DNA from: Octopus vulgaris | Lineage: Eukaryota | Assembly: GCA_951406725.2 (NCBI GenBank) | Contig: OX597826.1 | Span: 60,326,001 to 60,390,000, forward strand | Length of the DNA stretch: 64,000 nt | Direction: 5' to 3' | Shown here: positions 4,612-57,132 of the stretch, one piece after another | How the letters are laid out: each line of letters opens with the position of its first letter | Position numbering within the stretch: the first letter of the stretch is position 1 | Notes under the pieces: generated by a model | The model's database searches: none | The model's input: only the letters and a program-made list of their open reading frames with translations | What the model was told of the DNA's origin: nothing | Translations under genes and position numbers: made by a program

Positions 4612-5178
4612 GTCTCAATTGCGCAGAATTGTTAGAGCGGTGGGTAAGATATGTTATACTGGTTTTAATGGTTTATTCGTTATCCCTTCAAACCACCGTA
4701 AGGTCAACATTGTTTTCTTATCTCTGCTGAGGCGATGAAATAATATATCTACCTACCTACCAACTAAAAATTTGGAGTCATATAATCGAGTAACCCACTC
4801 CAATTAAATTTCCGTATTTCGTCTGCCGCTACGTTCCCAGTTCAAATTCCGCCGAGGTCGACTTTGCTTTTCATCCTTTCGGTGTCGACTAAATAAGCAC
4901 CAGTTACGCACTGGGGTCGATGTAATCGACTTAATCCGTGTCTCTGTCCTTGTGTGTCTCCCCTGTCTTTAGCCCCTTGAGGCATGTAAAAAAAAGGTAT
5001 TTTATTTGCCGTTACGTTGAGTTCAAATTTCGCCGAGGTCGACTTTACCTTTCATCCTTTTGGGGTCGATTAAATAAGTACCAGTTACGCACTGGGGTCG
5101 ATGTAATCGACTTAATCACTTTGTCTGTATGTTTTTGTCTTTTGTATGTTTAGCTCTCTGTGGGCAATAAAAATTAAA
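4612..5178 (+). mobile_element. tRNA-derived SINE family A, tandem units
   Basis: Two B-box units (GTTCAAATT...CCGAGGTCGACTTT...ACCAGTTACGCACTGGGGTCGATGTAATCGAC) starting ~4813 and ~4996, preceded by a degenerate copy. Confidence 0.85.
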
Positions 5179-21350: not shown

Positions 21351-21422
21351 GCCTGCCATTCTACTATCTTTCTCTCTATCTATCTAGCTATTTATCTCTC
21401 TATATATATTTAGCTTTGTTAG

Positions 21423-21815
21423 GGCAGCGAGCTACCAGGATTTTTAGGACGTCGGGCGAAAAGCTTAGCGGTATTTCGTCTGCTGTTACGTTCTGAGTTC
21501 AAATTCCGCCGGGGTCGACTTTGCCTTTCATCCTTTCAGGGTCGATAAATTAAGTACCAGTTACGCACTGTGGTCGATTTAATCGACTTAATCTGTTTGC
21601 CTGTCCTTGTTTGCCCCCTCTGTGTTTAGCCCCTTGTGAGTAGTAAAAAAATAGGTATTTCGTCTGCAGTTACGTTCTGAGTTCAAATTCTGCCGAGGTC
21701 CACTTTGCCTTTCATCCTTTCAGTGTCAATAAATTAAGTTCCAGTTCTGTACTGGTGTCAATCTAATCGACTGGCCCCCTCCCTCAAAATTTCGGGCCTT
21801 GCACCTAGAGTAGAG
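21423..21815 (+). mobile_element. SINE family A, head plus two tandem units
   Basis: GGCAGCGAGCT head; two GAGTTCAAATT B-box units ~184 bp apart; terminal GGGCCTTGCACCTAGAGTAG tail. Confidence 0.9.
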
Positions 21816-25188: not shown

Positions 25189-25258
25189 TCCCGGGTTGAG
25201 TCGGGGTTAACCACAGTAAATAAGGTACTCAATACATGGCAGAGTAAATTAATTTATT

Positions 25259-25370
25259 TTATAGAAGGAGCTTCGACAGGACTAGAACTGTTTCATTCAA
25301 ATGAAATCAGGAAGCTTGATGATTTCATTTGAATGAAACAGTTCTAGTCCTGTAGAAGCTCCTTCTATAA
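25259..25370. repeat. 51-bp inverted duplication of a hammerhead motif
   Basis: 25259-25309 versus the reverse complement of 25320-25370: 1 mismatch. Each arm reads TTTC-ATTT-GAAT-GAAA-CAG(TTCTAGTC)CTG-TH-GAAGC. Confidence 0.85.
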
Positions 25371-25655
25371 TATATATATATATATATATATTCTTGTATA
25401 GGTACATAAACAGGTAAAGCAGGCAAAGGTGGTGTGATAGCATGGTGTTTTTCTCTGTTCAGGTCGGAATATGGCAGTGAATCTAGGAGGTGTGGATTGT
25501 TCTCGGTGCTATCCCTATCCATTATACTTGCTAAGGAAAAAGTAATTATTAAATTAACAGAAGAAATAACACGTTGTTTACATGTCGTGAAAGTCACCTA
25601 CAGATATTACTACCCTGTAAAAACAACGCTGGACCTGCCATAAATATATAACTAT

Positions 25656-36610: not shown

Positions 36611-36658
36611 GTAGTAATAATAATAATGATAATAATGATAATAATAATAATAATAAAA

Positions 36659-36870
36659 GGCGGCGGGCTGGCAGTATTTTTAGCACGCTGGACGAAATGC
36701 TAAGCAGTATTTCGCCCGTCGCTACGTTTTGAGTTCAAATTCCGGCGAGATCGATTTTAACTTTCATCCGTTCGGGGTCGATAAGTTAATTACCAGTTCA
36801 TCACTGGGGTTGATGTAATCGACACATTCCTTCCCCAAAAATTGTTGCCCTTGTGGCAAAATTTGAAACT
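36659..36870 (+). mobile_element. SINE family A monomer
   Basis: GGCGGCGGGCTGGCAG head, B box and core; adjacent to (TAA)n. Confidence 0.85.
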
Positions 36871-39800: not shown

Positions 39801-40168
39801 GATTCGCCATGAAACAGAACTGAGCGTCGATATTCCCTTTCTCTCGTATCTTTCATCTCTTTCGCTCTCTATGTATCTCTTTCTCCACTTCCATCCCTAC
39901 TCCATCTTATCTCTCTGTTTCTATTTTTATCCACCTACAGAGCTGTATATGTGCCCATACGCACACATCACATACGCACATGGATGTGTGTGCGTTTGTT
40001 TGTGTGTACATATACACAGCACATGATATCGCTTGATCATTATCTCGGATCCTCCCACACTGAGGTCAAGATGCTCCATGTTGGTTATGTTTGTAAGAAT
40101 CTATGCAAATATTGTTGCATAAGCCGCGACAATTATTGAACAACCAACACGGTGTGTTCTAATCATAA

Positions 40169-40397
40169 GGCGACGAGCTGGCAGAAACGTTAGCACGCTG
40201 GGCGAAATGCGTAGCCGTATTTTGTCTGCCGTTTCGTTCTGAGTTCAAATTCTGCCGGGGTCGACTTTGCTTTCATCCTCTCGGGATCGATAAATTAAGA
40301 ACCAGTTACGCACTGGGGTCGATATAATCGACTTAATCCCTTTGTCTGTCCTTGTTTGTCCCCTCTATGTTTAGCCCCTTGTGGGCAATAAAGAAAT
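40169..40397 (+). mobile_element. SINE family A monomer with TSD-like flanks
   Basis: Full head and core; TGTGTTCT(A/C)ATC on both sides. Confidence 0.9.
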
Positions 40398-41051
40398 GTG
40401 TTCTCATCTCCAGTTCATAGATTCGTCATGAATTTCAGATTCTATAACAAACATAATTGTAGTAAGACAACTACCTCTGTATCGCTATCTAATATATTAT
40501 TTTCACTTATATATAGTTCAGGTTAGGTATAAACTCAATTAAATTAGAATATTTATCATATAATATTTCATTTTCATATTCTTTATTCATCTGTCTTAAT
40601 TCATCTTTCTACCCTTCGACTAGCTTATCATTTATGGAATAAGTATCAGAATTAAGTACCAGTTTTATATATAATTTATATACTTAACCAGTTTTTGTTT
40701 TATTCAACCTATTCATTTGGTTTACTTCATTCTATCATTAATTGCTGTATTTAGTTTATTCGATATTACTTATATGTAATTCACCCTATCCGAATCTAGT
40801 GGTAACATTTATTTTATTTAGTTTATTATTTATTCCCAATGATTATGCACTGTCAATAATGTTTAGTACTTTCAATATCCTATAGCTAACACCATTATAA
40901 CCGGCTGATACTTAACTTTTCCCTCACTACCTGCCATTCCAGATTCACTGTGCTAAAATGCTGTTGTCTGAAGATTTCGTTTATCTTGTTTACAACCCTC
41001 TAACACTACCTCCATTCCCCTTCTGTTCACTGATAAAATGCAGCACGGGTT

Positions 41052-41102
41052 TTTGTCAGTGAACAGGTCGCGGTCTTATAGCGACGAAAATATTTTGACA
41101 AA
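41052..41102 (+). ncRNA. Variant hammerhead motif with G3-C8 core (GUGAACA)
   Basis: TTTGTCA-GTGAACA-G-GTCGC(GGTCTTATA)GCGAC-GAA-AATATT-T-TGACAAA: 7-bp stem I, 5-bp stem II, palindromic stem III. Confidence 0.75.
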
Positions 41103-41300
41103 TTAAACTTAAATGTTGAAGTGGATCGAACGGCTTTTGTGTGTTTCTTAAATGGCTTACAAACACCTTCCACGCTACAATTGTTTATATATATATATAT
41201 ATACATATTTATTCATGCGTTCATATGTGTATGCGTATATGTATATTTGTATGTGTGTGTATATATATATAATATATATTATCATTATTTATATTTGTAA

Positions 41301-41500
41301 GGCGGAGAGCTGGCAGAAACGTTAGTACGCCAGGCAAAATGCTTACCGGTATTTCGTCTGTCTTTGCCTTCTGAGTTCAAATTCCGCCGAGGTCGACTTT
41401 GTTTTCGGGGTCGATAAATTAAGTACTAGTTGCATACAGTGATCGATTGGCCAATCGATTGGCCTCCTCCCTAAAAATGTAAGCCCTAGAGTTGAAAAGA
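41301..41500 (+). mobile_element. SINE family A monomer
   Basis: Head, B box and internally deleted core; ATTATTTATATTTGT repeated on both flanks. Confidence 0.85.
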
Positions 41501-46557: not shown

Positions 46558-47748
46558 AGCGGTGAACTGGCAGAAACGTTAGCGCGCCGGGCGAAATGCT
46601 TAGCGGTATTTCGTCTGTGTTACGTTGTGAGTTCAAATTCTGCCGAGGTCGACTTTGTCTTTCATCCTTTCGGGGTCGATAAATTAAGTACCAGTTACGT
46701 AGTGGAGTCGATGTAATCGACTTAATACCTATGTCTGTCCTTGTTTGTCCGCTCTGTGTTTAGCCCCTTGTGGGTAATAAAAAAATAGGTATTTCGTCTG
46801 CCGATACATTCTGAGTTCAAATTCCACCGAGGTCTACTTTGCCTTTCATCCTTTCGGGGTCGATTAAATAAGTAGCAGTTATGCACTGGGGTCAATATAA
46901 TTGACTTAATCCATTTGTCCGTCCTTGTTTGTCCTCTCTGTGTTTAGCCACTTGTGGGTAATAAAGAAATAGGTACTTCATCTGTCTTTACGTTCTGAGT
47001 TCAAATTCCGCCAAAGTTGACTTTGTCTTTCATCCTTTCTGGTTCGACAAATTAAGTACCAGTTGCGTACTGGGGTTGATCTAATCGATTGCCTCGTCTC
47101 CCCAAAAATATTGGGCCTTTTTCCTAAAGTAGAAAAAGAATCATTAGCATGCCGGGCTTAATACTTATCGATATTTCGTCTCTTTATGTTCTGAGTTCAA
47201 ATTCCACCGAGGCCGACTTTGCTTTTCATCCATTCGGGGTGATAAATTAAGTAGCAGTTGAGTACTGGGGTCGTTCCAATCCACTGCCCTTCTCCCTTGT
47301 GTCTTTAGTAAAAAGGTTTATTATCAGCATTATCATGCGAGGCGGTAAAGTGGTGGAATCTTTAGCAATCTGTTAAATTGTTCTGGAACATGTCGTCCAT
47401 CTTTACGTTGTGAGATGAAATTCCGCCAGGGTCATCTTTGACTTTCATCATTACGGGGTCAGTAAAATAAGCACAAATTGAACACTGCAGGCAACATAAT
47501 CGACTATCCCCGAAATTTCTTGTCCCAGATTTAAAACCCCTGGTTTTAAAATAGGTATTTCATATGTTTTTTTCGTTCTCAGTTCAAATTCCACCAAAGT
47601 CGACTTTGCGTTTCATCCTTTCGGGGTCGATAAATTAAGTACCAGTTGCATGCTGGCGTTGATCTAATCGACCGCCCCCTATCCCCAAAAATATCGGGCC
47701 TTGTGCCTAGAGTAGAAAAAAAATCTTTAGCATGCGTAGCGTAAATAC

Positions 47749-47802
<54 letters not shown>

Positions 47803-48110
47803 CATTATTATTATTATTATTGTTGTTGTTGTTGTTTTTGTTATTATTATTAGTAGTAGTAGTATTATTATTATTGTTGTTGTTGTTATTATTATTATTA
47901 TTATTATTAAGGCATAATAATAGCATTTCTTTGCGTTCTGAGTTCAAATTCTGCCGGGGTCGATGAAATAAGTACCAGTTGACTTATTGACTATTCCTTT
48001 CCTCTAAAATTTTAGGCTTTGTGCCTTAGTGGAAATGATTATTATCATTATTGAGGCGGTGAGACGACGGGATTGTTAGCACACCCGGGGAAAATACTTA
48101 GCGACATTTT
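46558..48110 (+). mobile_element. Cluster of SINE family A copies (trimer plus further monomers)
   Basis: Units start at 46605, 46788 and 46972; further copies near 47142, 47340, 47553 and 47925; a head fragment at 48054. Confidence 0.9.
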
Positions 48111-48331
48111 ATTTAACCACTGAGCGTGAGTTCTTAGAATTTATGATTACTAAATTTGAGCATTTTTTTTAGAAACGCAATTAGTAACGTGAATAAAACG
48201 GGATATTATTTTTAGAATACATACTGATATATTAAACCACAAGAGAGTATCCACAAATATAGCAGGGCAAGGACACAACATGAATCGTCATTTCCAGAAA
48301 TGCTCATGAGAAAGTTTGGAGCAACCAGTAC

Positions 48332-49095
48332 TCTTTTCTTCTTTAGGCACAAAGCCCGAAATTTTTGGGAAGGGGGCCAGCGAATTAGATCAACCCAGTA
48401 CGCAACTGGTACTTAATGTATTGACACCGAAAGAATGAAAGGCAAAGTCGACCTCGGCGGAATTTGAACTCAGAACATGAAAGACAGACGAAATACCTAT
48501 TTCTTTACTACCCACAAGGAGCTAAACACAGAGAGGACAAACAAGAACAGACAAACGGATTAAGTCGATTATATCGACGCCAGTGCGTAACTGGTACTTA
48601 TTTAATCGACCCCGAAAGTATGAAAGGCAAAGTCGACCTTGGTAGAATTTGAACTCAGAACGTAAAGACAAGCGAAATACGTATTTCTTTACTACCCACA
48701 AGGGGCTAAACACAGAGAGGACAAACAAGAACAGACAAACGGATTAAGTTGATTATATCGACCCAAGTGCGTAACTGGTACTTTTTTAATCAACCCCGAA
48801 AGTATGAAAGGCAAAGTCGAGCTTGGCAGAATTTGAACTCAGAACGTAAAGACAAGCGAAATACGTATTTCTTTACTACCCACAAGGGGCTAAACACAGA
48901 GAAGACAAACAAGAACAGACAAACGGATTAAGTCGATTATATCGACCCAAGTGCGTAACTGGTACTTTTTTAATCAACCCCGAAAGTATGAAAGGCAAAG
49001 TCGAGCTTGGCAGAATTTGAACTCAGAACGTAGCGGCAGACGAAATACCGCTAGGCATTTCGCCCGGCGTGCTAACGATTCTGCCAGCTCGCCGC
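48332..49095 (-). mobile_element. SINE family A tetramer
   Basis: One head ending at 49095; four GAATTTGAACTCAGAAC units with ~184-bp period; tail at 48332. Confidence 0.92.
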
Positions 49096-49482
49096 TTCGA
49101 AGCAACCAATATCACACAGCAATCATGGTCCATGTTACATTAAATATACGTCGAATCTTTGTCGTACTCGCATAGGTACTATTTCTTCTCTGATACAAGG
49201 TATGATGGTTCATTTATTTGACGGCTTCACGTCTCCCCAACAAATTCCAGGAGGTTTTTATCACTTTTGACAAGGAGTCTCACTTCGATTTTCACGGCTA
49301 CAGACACACTTACAGACCGATATATATATATATATATATATGGTACAGGTAATAAACCTCATTTACGGGATGATAAATCCAATGAAAATACTGGTTAATT
49401 ACCAATCTATAGAAAGTTCAACTATGTCCTTGCATAGCAAGTGACTTGTTCTGTCATCGTGTACTGAAACGAAAACAACTGC

Positions 49483-51015: not shown

Positions 51016-51055
<40 letters not shown>

Positions 51056-51132
51056 TGCAGCGTGGAAGGTGTTTGTAAGCCATTTAAGAAACACACAAAA
51101 GCCGTTCGATTCACTTCAACATTTAAGTTTAA

Positions 51133-51182
51133 TTTGTCAAAATATTTTCGTCGCTAAAATCCGCGACCTGTTCACTGACAAA
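51133..51182 (-). ncRNA. Second copy of the G3-C8 hammerhead motif
   Basis: Minus strand TTTGTCA-GTGAACA-G-GTCGC(GGATTTTA)GCGAC-GAA-AATATT-T-TGACAAA; only loop II differs. It shares a ~85-nt 3' tail ending CAATTG before (TA)n. Confidence 0.75.
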
Positions 51183-51752
51183 AATGCGAGTACATCTCCT
51201 ATATATATATACATACGTACACGCACACATGTATATGCATACAAACACACACATCTATATATATATATACATTCAACCCTCACACACATACACAATAAGG
51301 GAATAAAAGGAGCGCAAGTGGTGTAAACATTATCGATCGCTCATACTTAATGCGTGTGATGAGTTGGCTCGCCGCATTCGCTGCGAGATAACGTTCGGGG
51401 ACGATGCTCCTGCTAACGGTGGTTGTTGAAACACCTGAAAGTTTTAGACAGGCGAGACAACTCGCCTTAGATCGCTTTGAGGTGTGATGGATACTTCAGT
51501 TTTGTAGCTGAACAACGTACTATGCCTGAATCTAGTCACCAGTCTATGACTATATAAATAATGTAAGAACTATCTGCTGATGTGCCTTGGCGGTGTGGAT
51601 GTAAGATCACCTTGAATAACGAGGTAAAAGTGTGTGAGTTCGATATGTTATTTCATGCCACAAGATAGTGTGAAGTGGCTCTGAATTGTACAGCACTTGA
51701 AAGATAAGATCATACATGAGGAAAAATGGTATGATTTCGACAATCATACTAA

Positions 51753-51964
51753 GGTGGCGAGCTGGCAGAAACGTTAGCACGCCGGGCGAAATGCTTAGTG
51801 GTATTTCGTCTGCCGCTACGTTTTGAGTTCAAATTCCACCAAGGTCGACTTTGCCTTTCATCCTTTCGGGTTCGATTAAATAAGTACCAGTTACGCACTG
51901 GGGTCGATATAATCGACTTAATCCGTTAGTCTGTGGTTAGCCCCTTGTGGGTAGTAAAGAAATA
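51753..51964 (+). mobile_element. SINE family A monomer with an 18-bp flanking direct repeat
   Basis: GGTATGATTTCGACAATC at 51728-51745 and at 51965-51982. Confidence 0.92.
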
Positions 51965-52159
51965 GGTATGATTTCGACAATCTAAGGTCAGGGGTTGTGT
52001 AAATATATGCTCGCATCTGTTGTAGCATGCTATATTCGCAGCGATGTCATTTATGTACGAGAAACTTATCTGAACGTTGTAGTTGTCGAAAAGCTTATAG
52101 TACTCAAACCCTGGGGCAAATGCCTCTTGAATGATGAGACAAATCTCCGAGAAATGTTG

Positions 52160-55586: not shown

Positions 55587-56241
55587 CACATACATATATA
55601 CATGTATATGTGTGTGCATGTGTGTGTATGTATACAGGAACATGCAGTAAAAGAGAAAGTGAGCTACCAAATGGATCATTTGGCATTCTTAATGCACATA
55701 CTCACGCATAAACACCCCTATATACACGAGCTCGCGCGCACACACGCATACACACAAAGTCACTTGACAAGTGTTGCTGTCATGAAATGAATGATAATCA
55801 TTATTCGTGCATCATAGACCCTGCAGCACTGATTCCAAACTATATACACCTCTGACATTTGATGACGTATTAAAGATCATTTTCTTTCCACCTACTGCCA
55901 TATTTGACAGCTTAACGATTTTTGACAACGTCTTCGCTCTTTGTTAAATATTTTGAAAAAAAAAAAAAAAAAAAAGAGAAGAAATTACTTGCAACCCATT
56001 GAAATGTTATCCCTTGATTCAAAGCTCCACGCCCTGCATTCTCCTCACCGTAGGAACATAAAAAAAAAAACGAATAAGCATATTAATGTATCAAAGCTGT
56101 TGAAATTTAAATGATTGATATAATATATATTTATATATATATTGAGTTGGCAAATATCTGATATTCATCATCTATGTGTCTGTGTGCGTGATGTTGTGTA
56201 CATGTAAATAAATAAGCATATGCACATGCGTATTTATATGT

Positions 56242-57132
<891 letters not shown>

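Follow-up and report, generated by a model that had tools for sequence, protein, structure and literature searches.

The window, that is, the whole 64,000-nucleotide stretch of octopus DNA analysed here, contains two copies of a minimal type I hammerhead ribozyme motif, the only two hits in its 64 kb when both strands are scanned with positions 3 and 8 left free. Copy 1 lies at 41052..41102 on the plus strand. Its stem I is formed by 41052-58 (5′ strand) and 41096-41102 (3′ strand), and its core box (positions 3–9, 41059..41065) reads GUGAACA, a swapped state shared family-wide that places G3 at 41059 and C8 at 41064. An extra G (41066) comes before stem II, which has 5 bp and a 9-nt loop; GAA and the palindromic stem III/loop AAUAUU (41089..41094), the predicted dimer interface, follow. 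Cleavage is predicted after U17 (41095). Copy 2, at 51133..51182 on the minus strand, is the same apart from loop II, which has the 8 nt of the young subfamily. The first-pass annotation had described both the type I layout with a GUGAACA box and a second copy differing in loop II alone; the former was confirmed position by position, and so was the latter.

Based on this layout, the motif has the type I features (A15.1-U16.1 and a three-way junction that includes stems I and II), together with U4 G5 A6, A9, G12 A13 A14 and the NUH site, in which H17 is U. It also has the traits of minimal Penelope-like element (PLE) hammerheads: an extra nucleotide after A9, G10.1-C11.1, a palindromic stem III and a location in the pLTR. 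The literal consensus C3 and G8 is not matched, since the motif has G3 and C8 instead. Positions 3 and 8 form a Watson-Crick pair in the catalytically active hammerhead fold, a pair originally inferred from structure and double mutants, and here the pairing is satisfied as G3-C8. Folding z-scores for the two window copies are -2.6 and -3.4 (200 shuffles), with stems I and II formed. The 6-bp self-duplex of AAUAUU is worth -0.2 kcal/mol, and -3.8 kcal/mol was also computed for the palindrome region; the 10-nt palindrome 41087-41096 that contains it could, if paired, invade the hammerhead core in such models.

Rfam scans returned microsatellite-driven miRNA hits only, and the Rfam hammerhead covariance models left the motif unmatched at E values up to 10. 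A C3-G8 sister was equally unmatched, so the swap alone is not the cause of this miss. The expectation at first pass that searches would overlook the motif accordingly stands for CUGANGA descriptors, by construction, and does not extend to attributing the Rfam miss to the swap alone.

Each window copy is a short insertion into (TA)n and carries the opening codons of an ORF. The sequence common to them reaches beyond the motif to about 135 nt (41050-41184 versus 51184-51051, 96%). The first insertion (41038..41184, plus strand) begins at the pLTR 5′ end, extends to the first of the common 3′ ends and closes with 11 ORF codons, MAYKHLPRYNC (41152..41184, plus strand), in a frame that runs on into a long ORF in full elements; the ORF start at 41152 has a homologous counterpart in a sister family. 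The (TA)n run at its 3′ junction (41185..41208) is the likely target. Upstream lies a short inverted arm (41023..41038, minus strand), 15/16 complementary to 41051-41066, a 5′ inversion of the PLE-insertion type. This 16-nt antisense arm could, as judged from its complementarity, sequester the core of copy 1. The second insertion (51051..51184, minus strand) ends in (AT)n, and an inverted fragment of the element's tail (51184..51199, plus strand) is joined to its 5′ end.

The window also contains other repeats. A SINE-like repeat of 170-230 nt occurs in many copies (4812-5171, 21420-21814, 36657-36823, 40166-40409, 41298-41478, 46558-49096 and 51750-51969) and forms tandem and inverted arrays between 46.5 and 49.1 kb. 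At 25252-25377 an inverted repeat of 114 nt, near-perfect (93%), resembles a MITE-like hairpin, and a long tandem repeat with a 9-nt period occupies 56109-56850.

A Penelope-like element with a G3-C8 core

The host is an octopus, since a protein recorded for Octopus vulgaris is 100% identical to the genome over 796 residues. We searched this 2.8 Gb genome with a 20-nt pattern in which positions 3 and 8 were free and found 6,905 matches compared to 0 for a reversed-pattern control, so the motif is not a product of chance. Among the first 100 of these matches, scored by eye, there are 95 with G3-C8, 5 with a single change and no C3-G8. One 27-nt pattern gave 5,889 copies with G3-C8, 366 without C8 and 164 with C8 and without G3; G3-C8 thus accounts for 5,889 of 6,419 pattern matches (92%). 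G3-C8 is the family state of an element of about 6,000 copies.

The 11 stretches between inverted pairs that we retrieved for ORF inspection all contain part of the same ORF, and 10 of the 11 have two or more motifs. In its representative P0001 (L066:3344-5515) we read the motifs of a reverse transcriptase (RT) with YVDD, a CxxxCxxC linker and, at the C terminus, a GIY-YIG endonuclease. The hammerhead motif is found about 1 kb past the ORF stop on the same strand. One locus (L106) has the order motif-ORF-motif, with motifs at 2241 and 6502, 4,261 nt apart, and an ORF start about 60 nt past the cut site. No Pfam domain scored on P0001 itself. Among five homologues scored, RVT_1 was found with E values of 4e-5 and 3e-4 in two and 0.004 in a third, and GIY-YIG was a marginal hit in one of the five. 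The alignment profile recovered RT chains in the PDB.

RT and GIY-YIG therefore stand in one ORF, the defining combination of EN+ PLEs, and partial tandems forming pLTRs, inverted 5′ arms and an optional 3′ tail are all present. An octopus Penelope-like retroelement carries the motif as its pLTR hammerhead. The first-pass annotation had proposed a mobile family with a covariant core and had suggested looking for a Penelope RT/GIY-YIG ORF; both are borne out by the roughly 6,000 copies, the ORF linked to the motif and C3-G8 sisters in the same layout (below).

The two preferred 3′ ends, inverted 5′ arms and (TA)n targets of the copies fit the PLE anatomy described in PMC8557442. Among 140 copies, all selected on the motif, 88 start 9-18 nt upstream of stem I, and this clustering suggests that the RNA has a defined 5′ end. 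A branch-point-like CTAAC, a pyrimidine run and YAG, in CAG and TAG forms, stand immediately upstream of that common end in 890 matches (for example L017:1464-1489, L027:1467-1489 and L106:2200-2221). This sequence resembles a 3′ splice site, but we saw no spliced copy, and copies starting there have no common upstream exon; the position would be either a start site or a splice site.

As described by Craig et al. 2021 (PMC8557442), the Neptune and Nematis clades resemble the octopus element in having a C-terminal GIY-YIG, a CX2-5CxxC linker, (TA)n targets, inverted 5′-truncated arms, an optional tail and a pLTR hammerhead. An identity with Naiad was ruled out, because the Naiad endonuclease is N-terminal and the one here is C-terminal. 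P0001 and its homologues P0002-P0121 have about 130 aa between RT motifs 3 and 4, a segment like an insertion in fingers, compared to about 60 in the Poseidon row of PMC8557442; this long spacing does not match Neptune or Nematis, as the linker does. The P0001 family, for which 273 homologues were found, also combines a GGAIG motif with the C-terminal endonuclease; GGAIG was not found in the text of the PMC8557442 supplement, where long sequences are cut. As judged from these sequence features and the accessible clade descriptions of Craig et al. 2021, outside which this combination falls, the family possibly belongs to an unnamed PLE clade.

Several dispersed copies (L268, L269, L280-L283 and L241) have one and the same inverted junction in common upstream of stem I, which suggests a palindromic non-autonomous derivative that spread on its own. 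Separately, a tandem array of fucosyltransferase genes (Glyco_transf_10; L031-L033, G000:C28 about 25.04-25.07 Mb) with a period of about 5.2 kb carries two or three copies of the hammerhead element in each unit.

Covariation of positions 3 and 8

The best-known sister is the P0002 family (57% protein identity), which has many intact frames and the same layout with C3-G8. A pattern excluding G3 and C8 gave 1,864 matches, and 80 of the first 100 are C3-G8 by eye. The C3-G8 matches form at least four families, whose tails are homologous; besides that of P0002, three were linked to endonuclease fragments. The extra G, a GUC-C/G-GAC stem II, a 6-nt stem III and the tail are common to the sisters and the G3-C8 family. 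When the families are set side by side, no variation is seen at U4, G5, A6, G10.1-C11.1, G12-A14, 15.1-16.1 or the extra G, and pairs in stems I, II and III are altered on both sides, as expected of compensatory change. Positions 3 and 8 switch jointly between families. Given that the other core letters are kept and the stem changes are compensatory, the swap looks selected from these alignments.

A tree built from 23 rows of the endonuclease region, two of them under half filled, groups the G3-C8 family and four C3-G8 families with support 96/92. The G3-C8 family is sister to the C3-G8 clade and is not nested within it, so that a derived status of G3-C8 rests on the universal C3-G8 consensus. 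We also scanned 42 metagenome loci of related PLEs, giving no bonus to 3-8 pairing, and found 17 sense motifs and 0 antisense. These represent a few families and not 17 events, and all 17 are Watson-Crick at 3-8 (9 C-G and 8 U-A).

The octopus genome itself holds three 3-8 pairings, C-G, G-C and U-A. The last is found in a second, retrozyme-like hammerhead family with tandem units of about 362 nt (L073:5646 and 6007, minus strand; 1,217 matches genome-wide).

Minimal dimeric type I hammerheads of metazoan PLEs were described by Cervera and de la Peña 2014 (PMC4209133). They are likewise located in the pLTR and have an extra nucleotide between 9 and 10.1, G10.1-C11.1 and a short palindromic stem III, and their elements occur as thousands of truncated copies and as inverted pairs. 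The natural covariant given there (Schistosoma) is U3-A8, whereas the octopus family is G3-C8 and has lost the purine at position 8; neither octopus nor GUGAACA occurs in the searchable text of the supplement. Perreault et al. 2011 (PMC3088659) first reported natural 3-8 covariation; in the accessible text the named case is U3-A8 only, and a filter on the final alignment disqualified core changes. The same bases at 3 and 8 are known from the engineered C3G/G8C double mutant, a laboratory construct in which, according to PMC11167929, PMC8495972 and PMC3884650, cleavage is partly rescued, including in a PLE hammerhead. Unlike that mutant, the octopus G3-C8 occurs naturally, as the consensus of about 6,000 copies, and comes with U17. 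In the text of the accessible papers searched we found no report of a natural G3-C8 or of an octopus PLE hammerhead. That the minimal PLE hammerhead occurs naturally as a G3-C8 variant, fixed in a large family, is well supported. Such a family would complete the covariation series C-G, U-A, G-C, and CUGANGA descriptors are shown to miss whole hammerhead families.

Conservation of the core and stems was tested on 201 distinct copies, leaving out position 8 and CpG columns; motif patterns had served to pick many of the copies, which biases the test towards the core. Subfamily-level changes affect 5 of 9 loop II sites compared to 1 of 42 sites in core and stems, the single change there being an A to G that keeps a U·G pair. 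In the flanks, 13 of 152 sites as entered are changed, with one further column at 11% left out. The idea that core and stems are kept over their surroundings was thus upheld against loop II (p 3e-4) and did not reach significance against the flanks (p 0.31). Old and young subfamilies, with ORFs that are up to about 20-25% different, otherwise keep the motif intact.

Position 8 shows a distinct pattern of change. By eye, the first 100 copies without C8 have 41 G, 40 T and 19 A, compared to a background at non-CpG sites of 26 G, 100 T and 38 A; the excess of G8 over the background C>G:C>T ratio of 26:100 is significant (p 9e-6). Decay at position 3 tracks the background (about 60 A, 30 T and 10 C in the first 100, by eye). 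The G3·G8 class scales to roughly 150 copies, and none of the 41 has C3. At inverted loci with two arms, G8 is found in both arms in 4 of 5 cases and T8 in 0 of 3. G8 in both arms implies that it was already in the template, so that transposition was possible with a core that is predicted to be dead; this weakens the case for cleavage being required. G8 occurs on several haplotype backgrounds and does not behave as one clean sublineage. From these patterns, G3·G8 would be either a surviving ancestral intermediate mixed by recombination or the result of repeated reversion.

Young copies of the P0002 family (L142-L161), many of whose frames are open over about 1,310 codons, have a hammerhead with A9C and U17, and older copies have A9 and C17. 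The altered core in a young sister with intact ORFs suggests relaxed constraint on catalysis in the group. Natural G3-C8, G3·G8, C3-G8 and A9C versions side by side offer a ready test of the role of the Penelope hammerhead in vivo and in transposition.

Cleavage and the role of the hammerhead

Several features argue for weak cleavage. The cut site reads UUU, G3 pairs with U17 in the lowest-energy fold (probability 0.67), stem III has A-U pairs only, copies derive from uncut templates and G3·G8 templates transposed. The copies span the cut site, which means that their templates were uncut RNA, and their 5′ ends do not pile up at it. A break-enriched pattern near the site has 432 matches. About half of the first 100, by eye, are intact motifs with a small indel or a point change; the true junctions are scattered over neighbouring positions, with about 8 exactly at the site and 3 more explained by stem I microhomology. 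We therefore rejected a genomic footprint of cleavage as a signal.

The identity of position 17 may matter for a G3-C8 core. PMC3884650 states, with data not shown there, that G17 made a G3-C8 variant more active than C17 did. By analogy, C17 may trap G3 in an inhibitory G3-C17 pair, with U17 being permissive. U17 is also found in three C3-G8 sisters and hence is not specific to G3-C8. One G3-C8 copy (L105/L131:3902, minus strand) has C17 replacing U17.

A lizard PLE provides an experimental comparison. In PMC11167929, cleavage by its hammerhead is assisted by protein, lost in C3G or G8C and partly restored in C3G/G8C; hammerhead mutants had no effect on insertion in vitro, for which cleavage was not needed; RNA-seq ends were not seen at the cut site; and reverse transcription began internally.

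We consider it fairly probable, on the sequence evidence, that the octopus motif is a weak hammerhead that depends on a dimer or on the ORF protein and is dispensable for some insertions. The element RNA would begin about 15 nt upstream of stem I. Initiated internally at either of two sites (about 90 and 150 nt beyond the cut site), reverse transcription would proceed to the RNA 5′ end, yielding the thousands of 150-200-nt copies in (TA)n, including both window copies. These short copies would be cDNA of the uncut RNA 5′ end. Cleavage after U17, if any, would be slow and conditional, either on two pLTR copies in a tandem transcript pairing via AAUAUU or on the ORF protein chaperoning the hammerhead fold. 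U17 would perhaps be permissive, and C17 would make the inhibitory G3-C17 pair.

A somewhat unlikely alternative is that the hammerhead fold, including the 3-8 pair, is kept for structure (protein binding, a promoter or 5′ leader, or RT recruitment) and that cleavage in vivo is negligible. The predominance of uncut templates among insertions, the transposed G3·G8 templates, the young A9C/U17 sister with intact ORFs and the lizard results on insertion and RNA ends (PMC11167929) would all be expected if so. Nonetheless G5, A6, G12, A13, A14 and 15.1-16.1 are all retained across families with barely alignable flanks, and the 3-8 pair belongs to the catalytically active fold.

A further reading, which we regard as doubtful, holds that the family carries a natural functional G3-C8 hammerhead fixed in a high-copy retroelement, the roughly 150 G3·G8 copies being a fossil of the single-mutant step across a catalytic valley and the U17 background avoiding G3-C17.

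Neutral substitutions, complementary by chance, in a vestigial motif carried by a successful element are quite improbable: the copies descend from few master elements, making the swap one event, the single-change class G3·G8 exists and the tree, with the family as sister to the C3-G8 clade, leaves the direction of change unfixed, but differences from the A9 sisters affect only 2 of about 13 conserved positions, both of them known partners (a rough chance of <1 in 200), and the motif is otherwise intact across subfamilies with such diverged ORFs.
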